Shown piece after piece: positions 2,587 to 33,464 of a DNA stretch of 64,000 nucleotides. The translations under genes were made by a program, and so were the position numbers. The notes under the pieces were generated by a model that saw only the letters and a list, made by a program, of their open reading frames with translations, ran no database searches and was not told the origin of the DNA. Source of the stretch: Candidatus Taylorbacteria bacterium RIFCSPLOWO2_12_FULL_43_20 (GTDB lineage Bacteria; Patescibacteriota; Minisyncoccia; Phycocordibacterales; HO2-43-120); NCBI GenBank assembly GCA_001821295.1, contig MHSK01000006.1:11801-75800 (forward strand), written 5' to 3'. The stretch's first letter is position 1. Every line of letters starts with the position of its first letter.

Positions 2587-5500
2587 ATGCCGAAATTTAC
2601 TCATCTTCATACCCACTCCCACTATTCCCTTTTAAACGCCCTGCCACGACTGCCGGAGCTGGTAAAATCAGCGAAAAAAGACGGCATGGAAGCACTCGCC
2701 CTGACCGATAACGGCAATCTATATGGGGCGATTGAATTTTACAAAGAATGTGAACAGCAGGGCGTGAAGCCCATACTCGGCATAGACGCTTACAAAGCCC
2801 TGCGTACGAGATTTGACAAGCAAGCCGGTATAGACAACAAACGAACGAGATTGATATTGTTGGCAAAAGACAATGACGGCTACAGAAACCTAATCAAGCT
2901 CGTTACGTACTCCAACCTTGAGGGGTTCTATTACAAGCCGAGAATCGATGACGAACTCCTTCGTAAATACGGAAGTCATCTGATATGTATTTCTCCGGCC
3001 GGAAACGGAGAAATATCAAACATGCTTAGAGTTGGTGATTTTGACGGCGCCAAGAGCAAAACACGCGCTTACGGCGAAATTTTCGGCCGTGATAATTTTT
3101 ATTTGGAAGTGACTCGCCATCCTCAAGATGAAGAGCACGAAAAAATTTTGCCGGATATTAAAAAACTTTCAGAGCAAACGGGAGCAGAGCTCGTTGGCGC
3201 GCACGATATTTACTACATAGACCCTGAAGACAAAAAAGCCCGAGACACATTGCTTTCCGTCCAAACCTCCGGCGATTTCAGCGAAAGAAGGGCCTTTGGC
3301 CGAAGTGAGAACGATTACTCTTTTCAACTTAGCGCAAAAATGAAAGAGGTGTTGAGAGATTTCAACGGCGCGTATGAAAACGCGGGAAAGATCGCCGATA
3401 AATGCAATCTTTCGCTGGAACTCGGCAAGTGGCTTTTTCCGGAATACAAGGTTGAAAGCGGATTATCATATGATGAAGAACTCAGGAGAATAGTGGAGTC
3501 GGGAATGGATAGACGCGGAGTCAAGCCGACGGAAGAAGTCAAAAAACGGCTAGAATACGAGCTGGGGATTATTTTCCAGAAAGGATACGCGCCGTATTTT
3601 TTGGTCGTAGGAGACCTGCTTCGCTTCGCTCATGAACGCAAAATATTGACGACTATACGAGGATCGGTTGCCGGTTCGCTCGTCACCTACCTTGCAGGCA
3701 TTACCAATGTAAACCCCCTTGAATACAAAATTCCGTTTGAACGATTTCTCAATCCTGAAAGACCGTCCGCTCCCGATATAGACATGGATTATGCTGACGA
3801 CAGACGGGATGAAGTTATAGAATACACGAAAAATAAATATGGTGTGGACAAAGTAGCGCAAATAGGAACTTTCGGAACAATGATGGCGCGCGGCTCTGTC
3901 CGCGACGTCACCAGAGCGCTCGGACATCCCTACGGCGTAGGCGATGAACTTGCAAAAATGATACCGATGGGATCGCAGGGGTTTCCCATGACCATAGACC
4001 GCGCTCTTGAAATTGTCCCTGAACTTGCGAAAAAATATAAAGAAGATCAGACCTCAAAAGAAATAATGGACATCGCAAAAAAAATTGAGGGGTGCGCCCG
4101 GCATATCAGCGTGCACGCGGCAGGCGTGGTTATATCTCCTGTCCCGCTAACCGATATTGTCCCTTTGCAATACGACACCAAAGGAGAAAATAAAATCATC
4201 ACTCAGTATGACATGTATTCAATTGACGAGAACAATGCCGGACTTTTGAAATTTGATTTCCTGGGAATCAAGAATCTTTCAATTTTGGCAGAGTCGGTAG
4301 ATCATGCCAACAAGCGCTACGGCGCAAACATAGATATAGAAAAAATCCCGGTGGATGATGTCAAGACTTTTGATCTTTTGTCCCGAGGCGAAACAGCCGG
4401 ACTCTTCCAGATGAACGGCTCCGGCATGACCGCCTACCTGAAACAGCTGAAGCCGACAAGTATTTTTGATATCAACGCCATGGTCGCCCTTTATCGCCCT
4501 GGCCCCATGGAATCCATTCCACAGTACATAGAGCGAAAACATAACCAGCATCTGGTATCTTACCTGGATCCAAGAATGAAAAATATTTTGGATCAGTCAT
4601 ACGGGGTTATAACATACCAGGACGACGTTCTCCTCATCGCCATAAATCTTGCCGGATATACATGGCTTGAGGCAGATAAACTTCGTAAAGCCATGGGCAA
4701 AAAAATCCCCGAAGAAATGGAAGCTCAAAAAGAAAAACTTATTCAAGGCCTAGAGAAAAATGGCATGAATGGCAAGAAAGCCGGCGCCCTATGGAAGCTC
4801 ATAGAGCCTTTTGCCGCGTATGGATTCAATAAAGCCCATGCCGCTAGCTACGGCCGCGTGGCGTACCAGACCGCTTACATGAAAGCCAATTTCCCCGCCG
4901 TGTATATGTCATCCGTGCTCACGGCGGACTCCGGAGATGTGGAAAAAATCGGAGAAATAATCTCGGAGTGCAAGCGAATGAATATTCCGGTTTTACCCCC
5001 GGATATCAATGAGAGCTTTGCCGACTTTGCGGTCGTCGGCTCCGGCAAACCCGACGATGAAGAAAAAATTCGTTTTGGGCTGACAACTATAAAAAACTTT
5101 GGGGTCGGAATAGCGCAAATCATAATTGATGAGCGTGAAAAAAACGGAAAATACAAATCATTATCGGATTTTCTGGATAGAGTTAAAGATAGAAATCTGA
5201 ACAAAAAATCCCTGGAAGCTCTGGTCAAATGCGGTGCGTTGGATTCCTTCGGTGAAAGAGGTACCATGCTCGCCAATATAGAGGATCTTCTCGCTTATAA
5301 TAAAGAACAGTCTAAAAACAGCAATCATGATTCATTGTTCGGCGGGCTTTCCGAAGAAAACACGGGGATAAAAATGGCGCCGGCGGAAAAAGCAACCATG
5401 AATGATATGCTTGCGTGGGAAAAAGAGCTTCTCGGGCTATATATCTCCGGACATCCTTTGGACCGCGTAAAAGATCAATTGACGCGGCAAGGGAATAGTA

Positions 5501-5775
5501 TAAAAAAGATCAAAGAAGAACTGAAGGAAGGGATGACGACGGTGATAGCCGGAATTGTGGAAGAAGTAAAACCCTTACTGACTAAAAAAGGCGAGCAAAT
5601 GATGTTTATGAGAATAGCGGACTATACCGGATCAATAGAAACGGTCGTATTCCCCAGAGTGCTTACGGAATACAAAACCCTGCTGACTCCCGAATCCTGT
5701 ATCGCCATCAAGGGGAAATTCTCTTTGCGTAATGATACTCCCAGCATCCTCGTGGATAAAGTGAAAGGATTGTAG
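2587..5775 (+). CDS. dnaE: DNA polymerase III alpha subunit
   Basis: 1062 aa. N-terminal PHP domain (HLHTHSHYSLL), conserved polymerase core, OB-fold tail. Confidence 0.95.
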   Translation: MPKFTHLHTHSHYSLLNALPRLPELVKSAKKDGMEALALTDNGNLYGAIEFYKECEQQGVKPILGIDAYKALRTRFDKQAGIDNKRTRLILLAKDNDGYRNLIKLVTYSNLEGFYYKPRIDDELLRKYGSHLICISPAGNGEISNMLRVGDFDGAKSKTRAYGEIFGRDNFYLEVTRHPQDEEHEKILPDIKKLSEQTGAELVGAHDIYYIDPEDKKARDTLLSVQTSGDFSERRAFGRSENDYSFQLSAKMKEVLRDFNGAYENAGKIADKCNLSLELGKWLFPEYKVESGLSYDEELRRIVESGMDRRGVKPTEEVKKRLEYELGIIFQKGYAPYFLVVGDLLRFAHERKILTTIRGSVAGSLVTYLAGITNVNPLEYKIPFERFLNPERPSAPDIDMDYADDRRDEVIEYTKNKYGVDKVAQIGTFGTMMARGSVRDVTRALGHPYGVGDELAKMIPMGSQGFPMTIDRALEIVPELAKKYKEDQTSKEIMDIAKKIEGCARHISVHAAGVVISPVPLTDIVPLQYDTKGENKIITQYDMYSIDENNAGLLKFDFLGIKNLSILAESVDHANKRYGANIDIEKIPVDDVKTFDLLSRGETAGLFQMNGSGMTAYLKQLKPTSIFDINAMVALYRPGPMESIPQYIERKHNQHLVSYLDPRMKNILDQSYGVITYQDDVLLIAINLAGYTWLEADKLRKAMGKKIPEEMEAQKEKLIQGLEKNGMNGKKAGALWKLIEPFAAYGFNKAHAASYGRVAYQTAYMKANFPAVYMSSVLTADSGDVEKIGEIISECKRMNIPVLPPDINESFADFAVVGSGKPDDEEKIRFGLTTIKNFGVGIAQIIIDEREKNGKYKSLSDFLDRVKDRNLNKKSLEALVKCGALDSFGERGTMLANIEDLLAYNKEQSKNSNHDSLFGGLSEENTGIKMAPAEKATMNDMLAWEKELLGLYISGHPLDRVKDQLTRQGNSIKKIKEELKEGMTTVIAGIVEEVKPLLTKKGEQMMFMRIADYTGSIETVVFPRVLTEYKTLLTPESCIAIKGKFSLRNDTPSILVDKVKGL

Positions 5776-5858
5776 CTATTTCATTCAACATTGAAGATAA
5801 GGGCCCGTATCTGCTCACAGAGCCGAGTAATCCGCCAACTGTAACACTTTTTTCTTCT

Positions 5859-5935
5859 GTCATTCCCGCAAAGGCGGGAATCCAGATTCAAATGCTTGCT
5901 AGATTCCCGCCTTCGCGGGAATGACACCCCTCAGA
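5859..5935. repeat. Long palindrome: two 24-nt arms gtcattcccgcaaaggcgggaatc/gattcccgccttcgcgggaatgac, 1 mismatch, 29-nt spacer
   Basis: Seen directly. Lies 85 bp downstream of the dnaE stop. Each arm has its own sub-hairpin cccgcaaaggcggg. Confidence 0.8.
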
Positions 5936-6035
5936 GTTGTGAACAGTTACAGGGCCAGGGCCCTGAGTTGACTTTTTTACCTCATCATGCTTAAATGATA
6001 TTGAACAGCACAAAAATTCAACTCTACGGCAAAAA

Positions 6036-6440
6036 ATGACAAATGTACTTGTAGTGGAAGATGACGATCGCATGCGCCACATTATGTCTGAGCTCTTTGA
6101 AACTTACGATTTGCGTCTTATACCCGCGCAAAACACGGTTAAAGCGGAGCAAATTTTGGCATGGGACGAAACAATAAAGATCGTGGTGCTTGACGGCAAC
6201 TTAACACCTGAACGCAAAGCCAGCTCGACTCCTGATACGTTGCCGCTCGCCTGCAAGCTTCTGCAGGAAGACTACACGGTATACGCGGTGAGCAACAACC
6301 ACCATCATCAACACGCCCTTTCAAATGCTGGCTGTGTGATAAGCACGAAGCATGAGGTCGCCAAGCTCATAGCGGCATATTTGCATGTAAAAGGGTGCTC
6401 CGATAGTTGGGAGAGCAAATCCCTCCGCCAAAAAGCGTAA
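6036..6440 (+). CDS. Stand-alone response-regulator receiver (CheY-like REC) domain protein
   Basis: LVVEDDDRMR...IVVLDGNLTP pattern of REC domains. No output domain. No histidine kinase in the window. Confidence 0.65.
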   Translation: MTNVLVVEDDDRMRHIMSELFETYDLRLIPAQNTVKAEQILAWDETIKIVVLDGNLTPERKASSTPDTLPLACKLLQEDYTVYAVSNNHHHQHALSNAGCVISTKHEVAKLIAAYLHVKGCSDSWESKSLRQKA

Positions 6441-6454
6441 AATTCACACACAAT

Positions 6455-6487
6455 ACCAAACAGCACCGCATCTGTTTGGTTTTTTTA
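6455..6487 (+). terminator. Rho-independent terminator after the REC gene
   Basis: Hairpin accaaacag-caccgcat-ctgtttggt followed by TTTTTTT. Confidence 0.75.
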
Positions 6488-6530
6488 TTATTCCCTTCTA
6501 AACTTAACGTCTTTCTGCTATCATCTGCTC

Positions 6531-8279
6531 ATGAGTGGCAACGACGATCACATATCAAAAATCAGGCATTCTCTGGCTCACCTTCTGGCCGCCGCCGTAT
6601 TGGAGCTGTATCCTGAAGCCAAACCCACAATCGGCCCCGCTATAGACAACGGATTTTATTATGATTTTGATTGCGCCTCGGCAATATCCGACAAAGATCT
6701 CGCGAGGATAGAAGACAAGATGAAAGAAATAGTAAAATCATGGCAATTGTTTGAGGATAAAACTGTCACACCTGACGAAGCACAACAAATTTTTAAAGGC
6801 AATCCTTACAAACTGGAGCTCATTCGCGAAATATCGGCAAAAAACGAAGTTATCACGATATATACATCAGGAAATTTTACTGATCTGTGCCGAGGAGGCC
6901 ATGTAGATAACCCCTCCGCTCACATTCCGCGGAACTCGTGGCGGCTAGACAAAGTCGCGGGAGCATATTGGAAAGGCGATGAAAAAAATAAAATGCTCTT
7001 GAGAATTTACGGTCTTGCTTTCAGTACCAAAGACGAACTTGACGAATATTCCGAGCAAAGGGAGGAGGCAAAAAAAAGAGATCATAAAAAGCTGGGCAAA
7101 GAGCTTGATCTATTTACGTTTTCCGATTTAATCGGTGGAGGGCTACCTCTTTGGACCCCCAAAGGCACGTTGATGCGCGACCTTTTAGACAGCTATGTCT
7201 GGCAGCTTAGACAAAAACACGGGTATGTGAAAGTGGACATTCCTCATATAACAAAAAAAGATCTGTATGAAAAAAGCGGACATTGGGATAAATTTCAAGA
7301 GGAGCTTTTTAAAATAAAAACCAGAGAAAAACATGAGTTTGTGATGAAGCCCATGAGTTGCCCGCATCATACGCAGATTTTCGCCCGCAAACCTTGGAGT
7401 TATCGCGACCTGCCCCAGCGTTATGCCGAAACGACAAAAGTGTACCGAGATGAGCAGTCTGGAGAACTCGCGGGGCTGTCCAGAGTCAGAGCTATCACTC
7501 AGGATGACGCGCATGTCTTTTGCAGGAGTAATGACGTCAAGAATGAGATGTCTAAGATTTGGGATATCATAGCAAAATTCTATGGCGCGTTCGGCTTTGA
7601 ATTATCTGTCAGAATTTCTCTTCATGATCCGGACAATATGGACAAATATCTCGGTGACGAAGAGACATGGATAAAATCCGAAAACGAACTTAGGGAGCTG
7701 GTAAAAGAGAAAAAGAGCGATTATACAGAATGCGCTGGTGAAGCGGCTTTCTACGGGCCTAAGATTGATTTCATGGGAAAGGACGCATTGGGAAGAGAAC
7801 ATCAGGTAGCCACTATCCAGCTAGACATGAATTTACCGGAGCGGTTTGATCTATTCTGCATCAACGAAAAAGGCGACAAAGAAAGAATTGTTATGATACA
7901 CGCCGCGATAATGGGATCGATTGAAAGATTTCTTTCCATAATTATTGAACATTTCGCGGGAGCGTTTCCTCTTTGGCTTTCACCTGTACAGATAAGCATC
8001 CTGGCTGTAAGTGACAAGCATACTGAAGCGGCCGGAAGGGCATTGGAGGAATTAAACGGCGCGGGAATAAGAGCCGAATTGACAGATCCGAATATCAGTA
8101 TTGGCAAACGCGTCAGAGAAATAAAGATGCAAAAAATTCCTTACTGGATTGTTATCGGAGACAAAGAGGCTTCTAATAACTCGGCCGCTCTGGAGCACAG
8201 GGAAAGCAAGCTGGGAACTCTTTCTATTGAAGACGTAATCTCCAAACTGAGGAAGGAGATCGTAGACAAAACTCTTTAA
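6531..8279 (+). CDS. thrS: Threonine--tRNA ligase (short form without N-terminal TGS domain)
   Basis: Class II aaRS motifs, MSCPHHTQIF, C-terminal anticodon-binding domain. 582 aa. Confidence 0.92.
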   Translation: MSGNDDHISKIRHSLAHLLAAAVLELYPEAKPTIGPAIDNGFYYDFDCASAISDKDLARIEDKMKEIVKSWQLFEDKTVTPDEAQQIFKGNPYKLELIREISAKNEVITIYTSGNFTDLCRGGHVDNPSAHIPRNSWRLDKVAGAYWKGDEKNKMLLRIYGLAFSTKDELDEYSEQREEAKKRDHKKLGKELDLFTFSDLIGGGLPLWTPKGTLMRDLLDSYVWQLRQKHGYVKVDIPHITKKDLYEKSGHWDKFQEELFKIKTREKHEFVMKPMSCPHHTQIFARKPWSYRDLPQRYAETTKVYRDEQSGELAGLSRVRAITQDDAHVFCRSNDVKNEMSKIWDIIAKFYGAFGFELSVRISLHDPDNMDKYLGDEETWIKSENELRELVKEKKSDYTECAGEAAFYGPKIDFMGKDALGREHQVATIQLDMNLPERFDLFCINEKGDKERIVMIHAAIMGSIERFLSIIIEHFAGAFPLWLSPVQISILAVSDKHTEAAGRALEELNGAGIRAELTDPNISIGKRVREIKMQKIPYWIVIGDKEASNNSAALEHRESKLGTLSIEDVISKLRKEIVDKTL

Positions 8280-8314: not shown

Positions 8315-8345
8315 AAGAATGTCAACGCTTAGCGTTGACATTCTT
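8315..8345. promoter_or_regulatory. 31-bp palindrome, family F copy 1: aagaatgtcaacgc-tta-gcgttgacattctt
   Basis: Perfect 14-nt arms. Copies at 8604-8634 and 9942-9972. Confidence 0.7.
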
Positions 8346-8603: not shown

Positions 8604-8634
8604 AAGAATGTCAACACTAAGTGTTGACATTCTT
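8604..8634. promoter_or_regulatory. Palindrome F copy 2, overlapping the uvrC stop codon
   Basis: aagaatgtcaacac-taa-gtgttgacattctt. Confidence 0.7.
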
Positions 8635-9905
8635 TACTTGATGATTTTTCTCATCTTTCGGTGATATTTGATGGCAAAACGATGCGCCTCACTGTTGACT
8701 ATTAAAATCTCTTTCTTAAAATTTCGAGCCAGATTTTCATTGCCAAGTATTTTTAACGGCTTATGCCTGTCATTTTTGACGACGGAAAACACCTCGGCGT
8801 TAATCCCTTTATTTTTTATAACGCGTAAAGCGGTATTTCTTTGCGCCACCCCTCCGTCCACCACGACAACATCCGGGAAAGGCCATTCGTTGTGGCCGAA
8901 TCGCCTCAGAAGCGTCTCCTCTAGCGCCGCGGTGTCATCGGGGCCTTTTTGACGGCGTATCTTGAACAGCCGGTAATCCGATTTTTTTACATGCTTATCC
9001 TCCATGACTACCATTACCCCTCCCATGTCGCGTCCGGCCATGTGAGCCACGTCATATCCTTCCATCCTAAATATCCGAGTATCCTTTCTTTCTTGCCTCT
9101 GGCCGGCGCCAGCTAGATCGTCATCATGCTTGATCAAAGAAATATCCTGAACGTGCTCCAGAGCAAAAATTGTCCTTTTGACACTCTCCGCTTTTTCAAA
9201 TTCCTGATTTTTTGCGTAATTTCGCATATCTTGGCAAAGTGAGCGTAACAATATGTTTTTTTTGCCTTCAAAAAATAATCTAATATTTCTGATAATTTTA
9301 GCATAGTCGCGCTTGTTTATTTCTCCCGTGCAAACTCCAGGGCACAGGCCGATCTGCCTGTTGAAACAAGGCCGGCTACTCTTGGAATACGTTCCCGACT
9401 TTTCGCTTACCGGCACGCATTTATCCCTGAAAGTAAATATTTTTCTTATAATTCTCATGCCTTCTCTGAGCACGGCGCCTTGCGTATAAGGTCCGAAAAT
9501 GTGTTTGATTTTATAACCGGGATTGCCGCTTTCAAGATCTTTGCCGCGTACGGTAAGAATCCTAGGGAAATCCTCGTCAGTAAACGCGACATACGAGAAG
9601 CTCTTATCGTCTTTGTCGGCTGTATTCGCATTTGGATAATATTTTTTTATCAGATTTGATTCCAGTATGACGGCCTCCAGAACAGAATCTGTCTGAATAT
9701 GTTCGACTCTGTCGGCCTCTTCAACCATACGCGCCACAATCGGCCCGCGAGTAATAGCGAGATCGTTTGAAAAATAACTGGAAACTCGGTCCATTAGAGA
9801 AGTTGCTCTGCCGATATAAAGAACATCGTCCCCTTTTTTGAAGAAGTAAATTCCCGGCGCGTCGGGAAGATCTTTTTTATTGAAATTTTTCATGATAGTC
9901 AGCAT
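8634..9905 (-). CDS. uvrC: Excinuclease ABC subunit C, short form (GIY-YIG plus RNase-H-like endonuclease domain; no C-terminal HhH)
   Basis: GIYFFKKGDDVLYIGRATSLMDRVSSYF (GIY-YIG) and MEGYDVAHMAG motifs. 423 aa versus about 600 for canonical UvrC. Confidence 0.8.
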   Translation of the reverse strand: MLTIMKNFNKKDLPDAPGIYFFKKGDDVLYIGRATSLMDRVSSYFSNDLAITRGPIVARMVEEADRVEHIQTDSVLEAVILESNLIKKYYPNANTADKDDKSFSYVAFTDEDFPRILTVRGKDLESGNPGYKIKHIFGPYTQGAVLREGMRIIRKIFTFRDKCVPVSEKSGTYSKSSRPCFNRQIGLCPGVCTGEINKRDYAKIIRNIRLFFEGKKNILLRSLCQDMRNYAKNQEFEKAESVKRTIFALEHVQDISLIKHDDDLAGAGQRQERKDTRIFRMEGYDVAHMAGRDMGGVMVVMEDKHVKKSDYRLFKIRRQKGPDDTAALEETLLRRFGHNEWPFPDVVVVDGGVAQRNTALRVIKNKGINAEVFSVVKNDRHKPLKILGNENLARNFKKEILIVNSEAHRFAIKYHRKMRKIIK

Positions 9906-9941
9906 ATATTAACTCATATCCTCCGTCTCATCAAAACATCC

Positions 9942-9972
9942 AAGAATGTCAACACTTAGTGTTGACATTCTT
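9942..9972. promoter_or_regulatory. Palindrome F copy 3 (arms extend to 18 nt) 37-67 bp upstream of the uvrC start
   Basis: atccaagaatgtcaacac-tta-gtgttgacattcttggat. A candidate -35/-10 pair TTGATG-17-TAATAT lies between it and the start codon on the minus strand. Confidence 0.6.
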
Positions 9973-10027
9973 GGATATAAAAAAACGGATGACCATGTAA
10001 TATGGCATCCGCTTCAATCAACTTAAA

Positions 10028-18268: not shown

Positions 18269-19447
18269 CTAAAACAAACGTTCGCACTTTTTGGCAATCT
18301 CATCCATTTCATCCGAATAGACAACAGCGATCTTTACTTTACTGCGAGATGTATTTATAAACCGGCTGTAATCCGACTGTTTGACATTCTTTTCTTTATC
18401 AAGCTCGGCTCCCAACCACTGGAAATCCGAGGCGATTCGTTCCCTTATTATATCTGATCGCTCTCCCACTGTGCCTGAAAATATTATGGCGTCCAACCCT
18501 CCCAAAACCGCGGCGTAAGCGCCAACATACTTGCGTATTGAATAAACAAAAATATCAAGCGCTTTTTCCGCTTGTTTGTCACCTTCGCCTTGAAGACGGA
18601 TAAGATCCCGTATATCGGGGCTCGTGCCGCTTACGCCGAGAAGACCGCATTTACTGTTGAGATATGCTTCGCATTCATCAATACCCATTTCACGAGCGAG
18701 AACAAGTACCGCGCCAGCATCTATGTTACCGACTCGTGTAGCCATCGGTACTCCTTCAAGAGGAGTATATCCCATGGATGTATCTACACTCCGTGATTTT
18801 CTTACAGCTGTGACACTTGAGCCGCCTCCCAGATGACAAACCACCACCTTGTCCAAAGCGGAGCCGTTGAGTTCTGACGTTATTGAAACAGCGGAAGATA
18901 CAGACAAGCCATGAAAGCCGAATCTGCGCAAATCCAAATTATTCGTTTCTTCGGCGTTTATGGCATATACTTGGGCGACCTCATTCATATCCTGATGAAA
19001 CTCGCTGTCAGATACCGCCACGATAGGAACCGTCGGATAATCCCGTCTTAACATTTCAAGCTCTTTGAGTAGAGGGCTCAAATGCAATGGGACGAGCTTC
19101 GCGGCTTTATTCAGCTTATGGATATAATCTGAGTCAATTTTCACGCTTTTGGAAAAGAAAGTTCCCGGCGCAACCACCCGGACGCCAAAAGCGTCTATGT
19201 CTAGAGCCTCCTTGACGTGCCCCCGCATCTTAATTTCATGTAAAAATAAAGACAGGACGTTATCAAACCCGACATTGTTAAGCGTCCTTTGCTCTTTTCC
19301 TTTGTCACTTTGCAGTTCCAATAAAATTTTTTCTCCCTCATGTTCAAAATGAGCAAACAGCATTCTCCTGCCGTCTTCGTAAAAAGCGTATTTTTTGGAG
19401 GCACTGCCGATATTTACAATTAAAAATTTTTTCTTTTCCATTGCCAT
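18269..19447 (-). CDS. ackA: Acetate kinase
   Basis: VNIGSASKKYAFY, CHLGGGSSV, VDTSMGYTPLEGVPMATRVGNID motifs of the ASKHA acetate kinase family. 392 aa. Confidence 0.9.
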   Translation of the reverse strand: MAMEKKKFLIVNIGSASKKYAFYEDGRRMLFAHFEHEGEKILLELQSDKGKEQRTLNNVGFDNVLSLFLHEIKMRGHVKEALDIDAFGVRVVAPGTFFSKSVKIDSDYIHKLNKAAKLVPLHLSPLLKELEMLRRDYPTVPIVAVSDSEFHQDMNEVAQVYAINAEETNNLDLRRFGFHGLSVSSAVSITSELNGSALDKVVVCHLGGGSSVTAVRKSRSVDTSMGYTPLEGVPMATRVGNIDAGAVLVLAREMGIDECEAYLNSKCGLLGVSGTSPDIRDLIRLQGEGDKQAEKALDIFVYSIRKYVGAYAAVLGGLDAIIFSGTVGERSDIIRERIASDFQWLGAELDKEKNVKQSDYSRFINTSRSKVKIAVVYSDEMDEIAKKCERLF

Positions 19448-21771
19448 TGTTGAATTTCCGCCGGATCAACCCCATATTGTCTGATGTACGCGCCATGTTC
19501 GGAAATTTTATTCTTGTATACGTTAATAGCTTTATTGGCTCTCTCTCTGTCTAAAACTTTTTTTTCCACCATAGTTTCAAAAACCTCTATAGCCAAGTCA
19601 TATCTGCTTGTGCCATTCCTGATATGCATGTCAAACGGCGTCGTGGTAGATCCATTTTCCTCATAACCGTGCACAGAGAAACGATTCTGATCCCCTTCGT
19701 AGTCAAATAAAATCTGCTTCAGCGTCTGCGGATAGCCGTGAAAGTTGAAAATAACCGGCTTGTCATTAGTGAAATAGTTTTCAAAATCAGGGAGAGGAAC
19801 TCTGCAGGAATCATGGCCGAAGCCTAGCGCGGAAAGAGACAAAATATTGACAAATCTTGCTTTAACCTCGGGGGTTTCCGACTTCACGATATCAATCGCG
19901 GCCAAACATTCTTTTGTAAGATAATCACCGACGCCGCATAAAACAATGTCGGGGTCTTTTTCGCTCGCGAAATCCCAAACCATAAGTCCAATTTTCAATT
20001 CTTTGGCGGCAAGCTCCATATTAAGCCACCTCGGCTCCAGTGTTTTACCCGCCACTATTATATTTATTGAATTTTTTGAAGACAAACATTTTTCAAGCGT
20101 CAAGAGCGCGCTGTTGCCGCAAGCGGGAAAATAGACATTTACTAAACATCCCTGTTTCTGGAGCATATCGTCCACGAACCCCGGATTCTGATGGGAAAAA
20201 CCGTTATGTTCCTGTCTCCAGCCGGAGGATGTTAAAATATAGTTCAACGAGGGTATATCTCCTCTCCACTTAACCTCATGGGACTGTTTCAAAAACTTGG
20301 CATATTGATCGGCCATACTCGCTACGATCTGAATGAAGGCCTCATATGAAGCGAAAACCGCATGGCGTCCGGTAAGAACATAGCCCTGCATTATTCCCTG
20401 AAGATTATGCTCGGAAAGCATTTCCATAACTCTTCCGTTTACGCTTAAATCTCTATCCTCTTTCACGATAGGCATGGAGAAAGCTCTGGCGGTTGCCTTA
20501 AAAACCTCATCCAATTTATTGGAATAAGTTTCGTCCGGAGACATCATTCTAAAATTTCTATTCGGTTTGTTTAACTCAAAAACGTCTTTAAGATAAGCCC
20601 CGGCCCTTCTCATGCTGCTTGAACCAATAACGCCGGGAAAATCAACATCCTCAGCATAAATATTGACCTCAGGTAATTTAAGCGGTTGGTACGCTTTAGG
20701 ACCCCCCATACTGTAACACGAGTCACCAATCCTATATTCGGCGGAAGGCAGACAACTCTTTATACTCTCCTCAAAACCACCTTTATTATCAAACAGCTCA
20801 GAAAATCCATATGACCTCAGCCATGATTCAACTTCCCTAAGTTCCTCTGGATCTGACTTCGCGTTGGGAGCAACAACTTGATGAGATAAGAAATTACCCT
20901 CTATTTTATTGCCATGCAATTTTTTTATTCCGGTCCAACCTTTCGGAGTCTTAAGGATTATCATGGGAAACACCGCGGGAAGCGTGATCCGTCCTCTTCT
21001 CGCCTTATCTTGTATATCTCTTATTGCTTTGTAACTTTTCTCCACCGCCTTATTCATTCGCTTGTAAACATCTTCCCCCTCCACAATTATAGGATCGTAA
21101 CCATATCCTTGAAACAAAGAAATCAGGCTTTTGTTTGACATCCTGCCGAATATCGTAGGGCCGGATATCTTATATCCATTTAAATGAAGTATAGGCAAAA
21201 CCGCGCCGTCTTCCGCGGGATTTATAAGTTTATTTATGTGCCATGAAGCGGCCAAAGGCCCCGTCTCCGCCTCCCCGTCGCCAATGAGACAAGCGACGAC
21301 CAGCTCCGGACGGTCGAGCGCCGCGCCGTAAGCCGTGGAAAGAGAATACCCGAGCTCGCCGCCCTCCAAAATGACTCCGGGGGCTCCCGGACTCGCGTGG
21401 CTCGGAAATCCATAAGGCCAGCTAAAATTACGCGCCAGATATGCAATACCTTTCTCATCAAGCGTAGCTTCGGGATAATATTTTGATAATGTTCCCTCCA
21501 AAAAAAGATTGGCTTGGAGAGCGGGGAAACCGTGCCCCGGTCCCAGCACGAACATCATCCTTGCGTTGTGTTTTTTTGACAGTGCGTTAAGGTGCGCGTA
21601 TACAAAATTTATACCCGGACAAGTGCCCCAATGACCCAGTAGTCTGGGCTTAATGTGAGAGGACGCAAGGGGTTTATTCAGGAGATAATTATCCTGAAGG
21701 TAGATTTGTACAGCCGAAATATAGTTAGCGGCACGAACGTATTTTTTTATATTTTCTATGTTGCCAATCAT
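19420..21771 (-). CDS. xfp: Xylulose-5-phosphate/fructose-6-phosphate phosphoketolase
   Basis: 783 aa. GHWGTCPG signature, TPP-binding GDGE motif. Overlaps ackA by 28 nt (operon). Confidence 0.92.
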   Translation of the reverse strand: MIGNIENIKKYVRAANYISAVQIYLQDNYLLNKPLASSHIKPRLLGHWGTCPGINFVYAHLNALSKKHNARMMFVLGPGHGFPALQANLFLEGTLSKYYPEATLDEKGIAYLARNFSWPYGFPSHASPGAPGVILEGGELGYSLSTAYGAALDRPELVVACLIGDGEAETGPLAASWHINKLINPAEDGAVLPILHLNGYKISGPTIFGRMSNKSLISLFQGYGYDPIIVEGEDVYKRMNKAVEKSYKAIRDIQDKARRGRITLPAVFPMIILKTPKGWTGIKKLHGNKIEGNFLSHQVVAPNAKSDPEELREVESWLRSYGFSELFDNKGGFEESIKSCLPSAEYRIGDSCYSMGGPKAYQPLKLPEVNIYAEDVDFPGVIGSSSMRRAGAYLKDVFELNKPNRNFRMMSPDETYSNKLDEVFKATARAFSMPIVKEDRDLSVNGRVMEMLSEHNLQGIMQGYVLTGRHAVFASYEAFIQIVASMADQYAKFLKQSHEVKWRGDIPSLNYILTSSGWRQEHNGFSHQNPGFVDDMLQKQGCLVNVYFPACGNSALLTLEKCLSSKNSINIIVAGKTLEPRWLNMELAAKELKIGLMVWDFASEKDPDIVLCGVGDYLTKECLAAIDIVKSETPEVKARFVNILSLSALGFGHDSCRVPLPDFENYFTNDKPVIFNFHGYPQTLKQILFDYEGDQNRFSVHGYEENGSTTTPFDMHIRNGTSRYDLAIEVFETMVEKKVLDRERANKAINVYKNKISEHGAYIRQYGVDPAEIQQWQWKRKNF

Positions 21772-23765: not shown

Positions 23766-23969
23766 TGTATTAAAATAATTATACCTTTCGCGTTTCTGCT
23801 AATTCAAACGATTTCACAATCTGCCATCACCTGCGGTAAATGACGGAAATGACATAAACGATAAACGCGTAAGCTCTGTTAATATAGACACTACATTTAG
23901 AATAAACCATATTACGGAAAAGAAAAGCCCGCTTTTGTAAAAGCGAGCGATTGAGTACGGCAAGATGGG

Positions 23970-24197
23970 TTAGTCAGTGATACAAGAATCTTGTCTCGTA
24001 AGCACGGGCTCTGATGACCATACTGCAGACTCATCGGCAAAACCCACGGTTTCGCCGGTGTCCACATTCATAGCATTGAATGCAAGTCCAGTAGAATATA
24101 ATCTTCTGAACCTTACAGGTGGACCATCCGAAGTATATCGAGCCCAGAAAAAACCGCCCTCATTTATGTCGCCGAACGTGAGTGTTTGTTGTACCAT
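23970..24197 (-). CDS. Hypothetical protein (75 aa) inside a GC-rich island
   Basis: ORF only. GC-rich like the neighbouring DHS-like gene. Confidence 0.25.
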   Translation of the reverse strand: MVQQTLTFGDINEGGFFWARYTSDGPPVRFRRLYSTGLAFNAMNVDTGETVGFADESAVWSSEPVLTRQDSCITD

Positions 24198-24326
24198 TAT
24201 GACGCCTTTCGTTTTTGGTGTCCGTTCAACATCATGTCACATAACTCAATTAATAGCAATATTACTGAAAAGATAACTAATGCTTAGTTCTCTCCGACGC
24301 CATTACCTTAAAAAACATTACTCTAA

Positions 24327-24364
24327 CCAAACACCTCAACGGATGCTACCGTTGAGGTGTTTGG
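24327..24364. other. Perfect 16-bp-stem hairpin (ccaaacacctcaacgg-atgcta-ccgttgaggtgtttgg)
   Basis: Seen directly. Not flanked by an obvious T-tract on the plus strand. Confidence 0.6.
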
Positions 24365-24525
24365 AAGTTTTGGTTAAATAACATAGCTTAACTCAAGCGT
24401 TTTTCATTGACAACGTGCGTATTTACCAGGAGACAATTTAAACGTATATTTTTATTTCAAACTTAAACATCCTCGGCCTACTTTTTTTTCGGCAAATCAG
24501 CTATAAACAAAACAATTGACCATTT

Positions 24526-24553
24526 TTGACATACTGCCGGTTTAAGGTAGTAT
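24526..24553 (+). promoter_or_regulatory. Sigma70-like promoter TTGACA-16-TAGTAT upstream of the DHS-like gene
   Basis: Consensus -35 and near-consensus -10 with 16-nt spacer, about 55 nt upstream of the start codon. Confidence 0.55.
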
Positions 24554-24609
24554 TGCTTCAAATTTGACAATATCAACCAAAAAACAACCAAAGAAAGGCC
24601 GGATACGAA

Positions 24610-25821
24610 ATGAATACCAACGTGAACAGTCAAGACGCCGGAAGTTTAGTGGGCAAAGCCGTGGATGTGAGACCGGTCTCCGAAGTAGAGAATCCGGAAG
24701 AGTTAATCATGAACTGCATGCCGGCATTCGGCGGCGCGTTCGTAAGAAAGATATTCTGCATTCTGGACCGAGTGATCACCGAGAATGTGCCTCTTGTGGT
24801 CGCCATTTCCGGGCCCATCACCGCCTCCAATCAGCATCGGGCCTGGCTCCTCCCTCTGATAGAGGAGGGCTACATCTCGTACATTACAACAACAGATGCG
24901 GCTTGTTATCATGACGGGCACTTCGGCCTTCAGGAAGAAAATCCCGTGCGTGAAGTGGACATTGAAGGCCGAGACCTTGAGTACGGCAAAGCCGGAGTCA
25001 TTCGCATTGGCAATGTCGGGTTTGACGAAAACGTTCTCTACAAGCAGGACAAATTCATATCTAATCTTTTGCAGAAACCCGAGTTCCAGCGCAAGATGAG
25101 CGGAACCGAATTCCGCAACCTGTTGGGCCAACATTATGACCGGCAAGAAGGTAGGCTCGGCATCAAGCCCGGCCTCCTCTCAACATGTTACAAGTATGGA
25201 GTGCCGGTATTCGTCGGGGCGCCGTGCGACGGCTCTGTCTACTTAAACCACGTAAAGCTTTGGGCTATGCGAGAAAATGGCGTGCTTCGGCACGACTTTG
25301 AGCTAGACATTGAGCGCGAAGTTTTTGAAAGCGCCGCTATTCATTACTGGGGATTGACGAGATCGCCAGCAAAGAAGCTTGCGATCCTCATACTCGGAGG
25401 AGGAGTGCCGAAGAACTTCTCACTTCAGCCGGAGCCGTTTCTATCTCAAATACTTTTGCTTAACGACATCGACGGTTACAGCTTTGATGTCCAGATCGTG
25501 AGCACTAACGTTACTTACGGATGTCTCACAAGCTGTAAGCCAGCCGAGGCCCACACGTGGGGAAAGGTCAGCGCTGAGGCCCTGGGTGGTACAACCGAGA
25601 GTCTCGAAGCAGACTACTCAACAATCATGCCCCTCATTTCTTGGGCCATAATTGATAAAAAACACCGACTCTTTAACCGTGACGCGAGTGAGCCGGGGGT
25701 CCGAGGATATTGTCTGCGAAATCACCTCCGACTGTACGACAAGTTGCCGGAGTTGACCAAGCACCTTCTGGATCGGATCACTGAATTAGATCACGTTGTC
25801 AAGCTCAAATCCGCTTTTTGA
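24610..25821 (+). CDS. Deoxyhypusine synthase family protein (DHS-like / homospermidine-synthase-like)
   Basis: Colinear with eukaryotic/archaeal DHS: VPVFVGAPCDGS (cf. IPVFSPALTDGS), ILILGGGVPKN (cf. IILGGGVVKH), and a C-terminal block ending in WGK (cf. human EAVSWGK). GC is clearly higher than in flanking genes. Confidence 0.75.
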   Translation: MNTNVNSQDAGSLVGKAVDVRPVSEVENPEELIMNCMPAFGGAFVRKIFCILDRVITENVPLVVAISGPITASNQHRAWLLPLIEEGYISYITTTDAACYHDGHFGLQEENPVREVDIEGRDLEYGKAGVIRIGNVGFDENVLYKQDKFISNLLQKPEFQRKMSGTEFRNLLGQHYDRQEGRLGIKPGLLSTCYKYGVPVFVGAPCDGSVYLNHVKLWAMRENGVLRHDFELDIEREVFESAAIHYWGLTRSPAKKLAILILGGGVPKNFSLQPEPFLSQILLLNDIDGYSFDVQIVSTNVTYGCLTSCKPAEAHTWGKVSAEALGGTTESLEADYSTIMPLISWAIIDKKHRLFNRDASEPGVRGYCLRNHLRLYDKLPELTKHLLDRITELDHVVKLKSAF

Positions 25822-25853
25822 AATCATTGGGCTTTGTTGTTTGGCTATCACTG

Positions 25854-25878
25854 CCCCGCCTCCAGCGGGGTTTTTTTT
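25854..25878 (+). terminator. Rho-independent terminator after the DHS-like gene
   Basis: ccccgc-tccag-cgggg followed by TTTTTTTT. Confidence 0.8.
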
Positions 25879-25901
25879 ATTCATTATTGCCCAGGGAATA
25901 T

Positions 25902-28526: not shown

Positions 28527-28784
28527 TTATTTATACGACATTCCGCCGCGGTGGCCTATTTCTAAGATTTTTACGATTTTTTCTTTCTTTTCTATTTGGT
28601 AGATAATCCGGTACGGCCAGACTCTGACTTTCCTTTTTCCTTTAAGCTTTCCTTCCATGGGACTGCCGACGAGCGGATTTTCGGCAATGATTCCCAGTGT
28701 CTCAATGATCCGACCTTGCCACGGTTGTGGAATTTTTTTCAACTCCTTCTTTGCGCTATTAGCAATATAGACACTGTATGGCAT
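28527..28784 (-). CDS. Type II toxin, RelE/ParE family (start taken at the internal MPYSVYI)
   Basis: …WQGRIIETLGIIAENPLVG…VWPYRIIYQIEKKEKIVKILEIGHRG matches the RelE/ParE C-terminal signature. Confidence 0.75.
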   Translation of the reverse strand: MPYSVYIANSAKKELKKIPQPWQGRIIETLGIIAENPLVGSPMEGKLKGKRKVRVWPYRIIYQIEKKEKIVKILEIGHRGGMSYK

Positions 28785-28785
28785 A

Positions 28786-29148
28786 TTATTTCTTCTTCTT
28801 ATGCCTGGTGTTCTTCGTCTCCTTATTTTTTTTATCACTTTTCTCCGCAACCACTGAATAACCCTTTCCGGACTCGTATCTCAACTCTTTTTTCAATTTT
28901 TCCAATGTTACATATTCTCCCCTCTTAAACTCATCCTCCGCTTTCTTGATCTTATCCATAAACTCAGGGTCGCCTAGTATTTCCATATCTTCCATAATAT
29001 CCTCAAAGTCGCTCGCGGACATAAGCACGGCTTTTGGCCTTCCTTTTTCTGTGAAGGTGTAATAATTATTCGGTTTTTGCACTTCCTCGGCTATATCAAA
29101 TATTTTTTTTCTCGCCTCGGAAATTGAAATGGTTGTTTTGGCTTTCAT
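28786..29148 (-). CDS. Type II antitoxin, Phd/YefM family
   Basis: TISISEARKKIFDIAEEVQKPNNYYTFTEKGRPKAVLMSASDFEDIMEDMEIL is a typical YefM fold sequence. Lies directly upstream of the toxin. Confidence 0.75.
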   Translation of the reverse strand: MKAKTTISISEARKKIFDIAEEVQKPNNYYTFTEKGRPKAVLMSASDFEDIMEDMEILGDPEFMDKIKKAEDEFKRGEYVTLEKLKKELRYESGKGYSVVAEKSDKKNKETKNTRHKKKK

Positions 29149-33231: not shown

Positions 33232-33464
33232 TTTTTAATGTGTAATAAAATTATTATATCATCATTTTCGTTACTGCCGGCCAGGGACCATGAATACATT
33301 TCTCTCCCTCGACTCTCGTCGTGCCGTCGCACTCCTCGGTCTGGGCACCAGCTCGTCTGTTTTTTCTACTGAAAAAACATGACTCCGCTGTTCTCGTCCC
33401 TACGCGAGTGAAGCAGTTCACTCGCTGGCCGGCAGCAAAGCCTTTCGCTTCGCTCATTGCTTTA

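Follow-up and report, generated by a model that had tools for sequence, protein, structure and literature searches.

What does a gene for a deoxyhypusine synthase (DHS)-like protein do in a bacterium of the Candidate Phyla Radiation (CPR), and did it enter the genome recently? The question is raised by a 64,000-nucleotide stretch of Candidatus Taylorbacteria bacterium RIFCSPLOWO2_12_FULL_43_20 (assembly GCA_001821295.1, contig MHSK01000006.1, positions 11,801 to 75,800), referred to here as the window. An initial annotation, made from the letters of the window, had marked the interval 23940–25880 as a GC-rich island, suggested to be horizontally acquired, holding a single gene for a 403-aa DHS-like protein. 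To our knowledge, no eIF5A/aIF5A substrate exists in bacteria. We lean towards the view that the gene product would be an NAD-dependent agmatine-coupling enzyme of homospermidine synthesis and would not act in protein hypusination. A recent horizontal acquisition of the gene is not supported.

A third subfamily of bacterial DHS homologs

The coding sequence (CDS; 24610–25821, plus strand) starts with ATG and encodes 403 aa. Its Pfam domain, DS (PF01916), spans residues 35–344 with a score of 123.8 bits (gathering threshold 27) and covers profile positions 7–285 of 288; we therefore refer to the DS gene and the DS protein. The two motifs named in the initial annotation, GGGVxK and WGK, are found at residues 263–268 (GGGVPK) and 317–319, and a helical C-terminal extension of approximately 55 aa follows the DS domain. 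An AlphaFold model built with 25 homologs reached a mean predicted local distance difference test (pLDDT) value of 87.6 and a predicted template modeling (TM) score, pTM, of 0.88. The best Foldseek matches of this model were all DHS structures, human and Pyrococcus, with target-normalized TM scores of 0.73–0.80, 17–19% identity and E-values of about 1e-13. The reading frame, the domain score and the modeled fold thus bear out the description of the product as DHS-like.

Among the curated NCBIfam models, the best match was NF001980, "homospermidine biosynthesis protein", which aligned over its full length at 193.7 bits, below its cut-off of 450 bits; the nearest relatives of the DS protein all scored approximately 180–194 bits on the same model. 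The model for SpeY, NF002699, gave 61.3 bits against a cut-off of 500 bits. The archaeal and eukaryotic DHS models returned 42–99 bits against cut-offs of 304–434 (TIGR00321, 83.8 versus 304 bits; NF002006, 99 versus 434 bits). Positive controls behaved as the models require. Four proteins (P0146, P0150, P0154 and P0224) passed NF001980 at 450–549 bits, and two plasmid-borne DHS homologs from PLSDB, used as SpeY controls (L009 and L010), passed NF002699 at 564 and 592 bits. One of the SpeY controls comes from Sphingomonas, where its gene adjoins an alanine racemase (AR)-fold decarboxylase gene, an arrangement that matches the SpeY clusters of PMC13625781. Trichormus variabilis is the source of the second. 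With these controls in place, the curated cut-offs rule out that the DS protein is an orthologue of SpeY or of the NF001980 proteins.

Pairwise identities follow the same pattern. The window protein shares 28–32% identity with NF001980 members, 21–22% with proteins passing the SpeY model and 19% with archaeal and human DHS. It is 47–60% identical to a set of proteins of 400–450 aa that carry the same helical C-terminal extension. On these scores and identities, the DS protein is best placed in a third, unnamed and uncharacterized DS subfamily, apart from both SpeY and NF001980. A scan for the pattern of this subfamily, using one genome per GTDB species, returned no fewer than 589 matching stretches. 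Most of them lie in Acidobacteriota (Bryobacteraceae), Planctomycetota, Myxococcota and Dehalococcoidia, with others in Patescibacteria.

Active site and agmatinase fusions

To compare active sites, a MAFFT alignment was made of the subfamily, human DHS, a haloarchaeal DHS, both SpeY controls and members of NF001980; the human sequence was checked against HMMER alignment segments and residue numbers. The catalytic Lys329 of human DHS corresponds to K319, which lies within EAHTWGK (codon 25564–25566, plus strand), while Trp327 and Glu323 correspond to W317 and E313; all three residues are conserved in the SpeY controls and in NF001980 members. The NAD-binding glycine loop, G263-G-G-V-P-K268-N269, is encoded at 25396–25416 (plus strand), and K319 and G263–G265 are invariant in both alignments.

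Four other residues of the human enzyme are not conserved. His288 is replaced by N269, an Asn that is shared by the SpeY controls and NF001980 members, and Glu137 is replaced by H101, a position that is His in NF001980 members and not conserved in the SpeY controls. Asp316 becomes L306 (Cys or Leu in the SpeY controls, Leu in NF001980), and Asp243 becomes L212 (Phe in the SpeY controls, Met in NF001980) in the MAFFT alignment, a column that is alignment-dependent, as HMMER places a two-residue gap there. The catalytic lysine is therefore kept and the spermidine-binding aspartates are not. Together with the equivalog scores, the loss of His288, Glu137, Asp243 and Asp316 rules out a true deoxyhypusine synthase. 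The expectation in the initial annotation that a bacterial DHS-like protein would not take part in hypusination agrees with these SpeY/CdmS-type substitutions and with the closer match to bacterial polyamine enzymes.

The agmatine-coupling enzyme CdmS is set apart from human DHS by Phe204 and Leu286, which replace Asp243 and Asp316, and guanidinium binding in CdmS is assigned to the equivalent of Glu323 (PMC10981699). A pocket of this type is present in the window protein, in which L212 and L306 are hydrophobic and E313 and K319 are kept. Bacterial DHS homologs were shown to couple agmatine only in 2024–2026, and every one assayed joins two agmatines to form N1,N9-bis(guanidino)homospermidine (G44G, "caldomycin"), from which a ureohydrolase then gives homospermidine (PMC10981699; PMC13625781). 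The SpeY homologs tested, drawn from diverse phyla, all make G44G, and neither human nor plant DHS does so (PMC13625781).

The subfamily is further tied to agmatine or polyamine chemistry by gene fusions. Three of its proteins, 52–56% identical to the window protein, bear an N-terminal agmatinase-family domain. In two of them (P0047, 701 aa, and P0121, 698 aa), this domain passes the TIGR01230 agmatinase model (cut-off 174.3 bits), with scores of 199.6 and 205 bits, respectively. The third is a 728-aa agmatinase–DS open reading frame (ORF) in a Patescibacteria metagenome-assembled genome (L029, 8413–10599), with an N-terminal domain that matches at 62% identity and an acidic linker of about 60 aa. 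This fusion was the only match in tblastn searches with the agmatinase domain and the AR-fold decarboxylase. Its gene lies directly downstream of a 346-aa ORF recognized by eye as reverse-transcriptase-like, near toxin–antitoxin-like ORFs and tuf. A stand-alone CPR-like agmatinase (L177) had no polyamine genes in its surroundings.

Proposed reaction and its alternatives

Given the active-site match, the agmatinase fusions and the assayed bacterial homologs, a SpeY-type reaction is the most likely one for the DS protein. By analogy with SpeY and CdmS, NAD+ would first oxidize agmatine, and the 4-guanidinobutyl moiety would be carried as an imine on Lys319. Transfer of this moiety to a second agmatine, followed by reduction, would yield G44G, which a ureohydrolase encoded elsewhere would turn into homospermidine; in some Patescibacteria, that ureohydrolase domain is fused N-terminally to members of the same subfamily. 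Arginine decarboxylase and ureohydrolase would have to come from other parts of the genome or from a host.

Several observations weigh against this proposal. The scores on both NF001980 and the SpeY model fall far below the curated cut-offs, and identity to the proteins that pass these models is low. The window protein departs from the subfamily at 14 positions with a conservation of 90% or more, the second-highest number among 25 sequences, and its active-site loop at residues 300–307 (nt 25507–25530) reads NVTYGCLT where the subfamily has PVTDGSLS, with pLDDT below 50. Many speY genes have polyamine-pathway neighbors, and none of the genes for arginine decarboxylase (ADC), agmatinase or agmatine deiminase/iminohydrolase (AIH) was found in the window. 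All-against-all clustering of the ORFs that lie up to 6 kb from the DS gene across 84 subfamily loci yielded no conserved operon partner, as the largest family occurred in seven loci. The agmatinase fusions are equally compatible with putrescine, the agmatinase product, as the substrate of the DS domain. Since no assay of any subfamily member was found in the literature searched, we hold the agmatine-coupling explanation as somewhat probable and no more firmly than that.

The same fold and chemistry could instead serve a different polyamine reaction, such as the coupling of two putrescines, of agmatine with putrescine, or of spermidine with putrescine (as in eukaryotic DHS and homospermidine synthase, HSS), or the synthesis of another guanidino-polyamine. 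CPR bacteria have a reduced metabolism, and polyamines scavenged from a host were considered as possible substrates for this reason. The position of the subfamily under both curated cut-offs is consistent with such a reaction, as is the C-terminal extension, which is absent from SpeY and DHS. ADC, agmatinase/DUH or AIH genes were absent within 10 kb of the DS gene in 83 of the 84 loci. Moreover, the fused agmatinase domain passes a canonical agmatinase model and would yield putrescine right beside the DS domain. However, Asp243 and Asp316, which bind the spermidine amines in human DHS, are Leu in the window protein and Asn takes the place of His288, a pattern shared with the agmatine-coupling enzymes, and the bacterial homologs assayed so far use agmatine to make a product that the human and plant enzymes do not make. 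A different polyamine reaction therefore stands as a realistic but lesser possibility.

A third explanation, that the protein is a deoxyhypusine-synthase-like transferase modifying a lysine of elongation factor P (EF-P) or of another bacterial protein, draws on the conserved active-site Lys, Trp and Glu of DHS and on the lack of polyamine-pathway neighbors. It is at odds with the replacement of His288 and Glu137 (N269 and H101), the loss of the acidic spermidine-binding residues, the nearest curated families, which are polyamine enzymes, and the agmatinase fusions, which point to agmatine or polyamine chemistry. Furthermore, no EF-P gene or partner gene linked to the DS gene was found in the window or among the 84 loci. 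We consider protein modification highly improbable.

For the unnamed subfamily as a whole, a reaction other than that of SpeY appears rather unlikely, whether putrescine- or host-polyamine-dependent coupling in reduced CPR episymbionts, the synthesis of a new guanidino-polyamine, or protein-lysine modification. A specialized role could be reflected in the C-terminal extension, which is conserved, and in the CDS, which is persistently GC-rich in Patescibacteria.

Phylogeny, composition and the question of recent transfer

Whether the gene arrived recently was addressed from its phylogeny and its composition. A neighbor-joining (NJ) tree of 84 sequences was computed from Kimura distances, with 100 bootstrap replicates and with NF001980 members as the root. 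The window protein falls into a clade of 32 sequences with 97% bootstrap support, which holds all proteins labeled Patescibacteria and in which every labeled member is from Patescibacteria. This clade is sister to, and not within, the clade of the high-GC Planctomycetota, Myxococcota and Acidobacteriota, and the agmatinase fusions branch off earlier and on their own. The closest relative of the window protein is 59% identical to it. No foreign placement of the kind expected from a recently acquired gene was thus seen in the tree.

The compositional contrast on which the initial annotation built its case is real for the CDS. Its GC content is 0.517, against a mean of 0.4285 (standard deviation, SD, 0.042) for 66 window ORFs, and its GC content at third codon positions (GC3), 0.599 against 0.438 (SD 0.065), is the highest of the 66. 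Its Karlin codon bias (B) of 0.437 ranks first of the 23 genes that encode 300 aa or more, the next value being 0.345. For purD, GC content is 0.509 overall and GC3 is 0.494. The description of a GC-rich segment holds for the CDS only; the rest of the upstream interval, 23940–24609, lies in profile windows of about 0.40–0.45 GC.

These values, however, recur outside the window. Five other patescibacterial loci (L174, L175, L176, L007 and L008; DS gene at position 10001 or 5466) have unrelated gene contexts, and the GC content of their neighboring genes ranges from 0.357 to 0.504. In each of them, the stand-alone orthologue is GC-richer than its neighbors by 0.068–0.109 and ranks first to third in GC3. 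Over the six genomes, the GC content of the DS gene follows that of its neighbors with r = 0.97. The offset is absent from a Bryobacterales genome (L006) and from the L029 agmatinase fusion. It is a recurring feature of stand-alone patescibacterial DS genes; because it recurs in five other orthologues, it is not a scar of recent entry and gives no evidence for one. Selection on codons, or something else, could account for it.

A recent single-gene island from a higher-GC donor, whose GC content and codon usage had not yet drifted towards those of the host, would explain why the CDS tops the window in GC content, GC3 and codon bias, and why it comes with promoter-like and terminator-like signals of its own. 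Such an island would also fit the flanking ORFan and hypothetical genes, the ParE/Phd toxin–antitoxin pair nearby, the patchy occurrence of the family across phyla and the view that speY itself spread by horizontal gene transfer (PMC13625781). The exclusively patescibacterial labels within a well-supported clade, apart from the high-GC phyla, speak against it, as do the absence of any relative above 59% identity and an offset that recurs in five orthologues in step with host GC content. No mobility genes adjoin the DS gene, and core genes make up the 64 kb around it. An empty-site search through the neighboring MscS protein, by metagenome scan, returned 80 loci with at most 73% identity and no shared neighbors, and hence no close relatives. 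We regard a recent island as quite improbable. An ancient transfer of the family between phyla is plausible because of its patchy distribution.

Gene structure and expression signals

The DS gene is intact, monocistronic and probably functional, with a promoter-like site and a terminator-like hairpin of its own. The near-consensus sigma-70 promoter proposed in the initial annotation corresponds to the pattern TTGACA–16 nt–TAGTAT (24526–24553, plus strand), a pattern match at 10 of 12 positions, with 56 nt between the end of its -10 hexamer and the ATG. The pattern scan found nine such sites, against 3.6 ± 1.8 expected from shuffles, and this one is the better placed of the two that score 10 of 12. 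A GAAAGG located 11 nt upstream of the ATG (24593–24598, plus strand) was noted by eye and may serve as the ribosome-binding site. Downstream, the intrinsic terminator already described corresponds in the pattern scan to a terminator-like site, GCCCCGC-CTCCA-GCGGGGT followed by T8 (25853–25879, plus strand); its hairpin (25853–25871) has 7 bp with 6 GC pairs, begins 31 nt past the stop codon and separates the DS gene from the convergent DUF3105 gene.

The strong hairpin that had been counted among the signals of the gene is present as a perfect 16-bp stem with a 6-nt loop (24327–24364, strand not assigned) in the divergent intergenic region, and it folds much better than shuffled sequences (z = -6.4). 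It lies 162 nt upstream of the promoter-like site and is therefore probably not part of the DS mRNA. The upstream regions of six further subfamily loci from Patescibacteria contained no counterpart. Being upstream of the predicted promoter and absent from orthologues, it is not a conserved part of the expression signals. It may act as a transcription insulator, or as a terminator for upstream or antisense transcription. Its Rfam matches were at chance level only and it occurs once within the window, which, together with the missing orthologous counterpart, rules out a known RNA or repeat family.

The interval of the initial annotation also contains a 75-aa ORFan divergent from the DS gene (23970–24197, minus strand), which is called as a gene in every assembly shown. 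Its sole database match was itself, no Pfam match was found, and it probably plays no part in the function of the DS gene. A terminator-like hairpin of 9 bp with a T-rich tail lies 21 nt downstream of it (23927–23948, minus strand; pattern scan). Antisense to this ORFan runs a 99-aa ORF (23977–24276, plus strand) that ends 50 nt before the 16-bp hairpin.

Genomic surroundings

Contig MHRB01000010.1 of GCA_001820825.1 carries the same protein with identical flanks, as do 43 blocks of other assemblies. The available copies of the CDS do not differ from one another, which leaves no substitutions for a within-species dN/dS. The neighbors of the DS gene are the MscS channel gene, the divergent 75-aa ORFan and the convergent DUF3105 gene. 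Around them, the window holds core CPR genes, including dnaE, thrS, uvrC, uvrA, murJ, purD, gyrB, pheST, tsf, rpsB and prfA, as well as the genes for acetate kinase and phosphoketolase. Neither a mobility gene nor a tRNA target was found adjoining the DS gene (nearest tRNAs at 33464 and 47180), a search that did not include flanking direct repeats. In related genomes, the surroundings show no conserved gene family and the relatives of the MscS protein share no neighbors.

Several features of the window are recorded here in their own right. The genes for phosphoketolase (Xfp, 783 aa) and acetate kinase (18269–21771, minus strand) overlap by 28 nt and form an operon typical of fermentative CPR metabolism. 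A ParE-toxin/Phd-YefM-antitoxin pair (28527–29148, minus strand) follows the DS gene at a distance of 2.7 kb and has hypothetical genes on one side and purD on the other. Three near-identical perfect palindromes (8315–8345, 8604–8634 and 9938–9976), with the half-sites AAGAATGTCAAC(A/G)CT and AG(T/C)GTTGACATTCTT, flank uvrC (8634–9905, minus strand) on both sides and come after thrS; half-sites with at most two mismatches number 8 against 0.5 expected. These palindromes look like a family of operators (possibly SOS-box-like) or terminators.

Two further observations concern subfamily loci in other patescibacterial genomes. In one of them (L175, 4909–13459), the DS gene lies between dnaE and thrS; in the window, dnaE and thrS are neighbors with only a 134-aa ORF between them (2587–8279). 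This arrangement could be a remnant of an older position of the DS gene, or a coincidence. Upstream of the DS orthologue in another locus, on a patescibacterial contig of 37.5% GC (L008, 8623–10000), about 1.4 kb holds no called gene; this stretch adjoins a gene of the bAvd/23S-rRNA-IVP family and gave Rfam matches at chance level only.

Comparison with known systems

The two curated models for bacterial DHS homologs do not cover a large third subfamily. The function of a single member would bear on how hundreds of "deoxyhypusine synthase family proteins" from Acidobacteriota, Planctomycetota, Myxococcota and Patescibacteria should be annotated, and that of the subfamily on whether homospermidine is made by ultra-small CPR bacteria themselves. 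The locus also offers a caution on method, as a clear outlier in GC content and codon usage is by itself no evidence of recent horizontal transfer.

Compared with SpeY and CdmS, the DS protein has the same fold and domain, keeps the catalytic Lys and the equivalents of Glu323 and Trp327, and carries an Asn where human DHS has His288 and hydrophobic residues where human DHS has Asp243 and Asp316. The link to an agmatinase-family ureohydrolase is also shared, made in this subfamily through gene fusion in relatives. Unlike SpeY, with which it shares just over one-fifth of its residues and whose model it matches at 61 of the 500 bits required, the DS protein is 50–100 aa longer owing to its helical C-terminal extension, and its subfamily shows no clustering with genes for ADC, agmatinase or AIH across the 84 loci. 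The NF001980 family (PRK00770), whose model scores best and aligns end to end, has the YHD and GGG(V/S)PKN-LQ-EP motifs in common with the DS protein, along with part of the C-terminal extension. In contrast, the window protein reaches under half of the cut-off of that model, is no more than 32% identical to three of its members (P0146, P0150 and P0224; 28–32%) and belongs to a separate, well-supported subfamily to which proteins passing NF001980 form the outgroup in the NJ tree.

Archaeal and eukaryotic DHS (TIGR00321, NF002006; PDB 6XXJ, 7CMC) resemble the DS protein in fold, NAD loop and catalytic Lys, whereas identity to these structures is below one-fifth and human His288, Glu137, Asp243 and Asp316 are not conserved in the window protein. 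Bacterial HSS of the Blastochloris viridis type (PDB 4TVB) is non-homologous, of another fold, putrescine-dependent and described as lacking a catalytic lysine (PMC4725965; PMC13625781), yet it resembles the DS protein in its likely end product, homospermidine, and in the use of NAD as a prosthetic cofactor.

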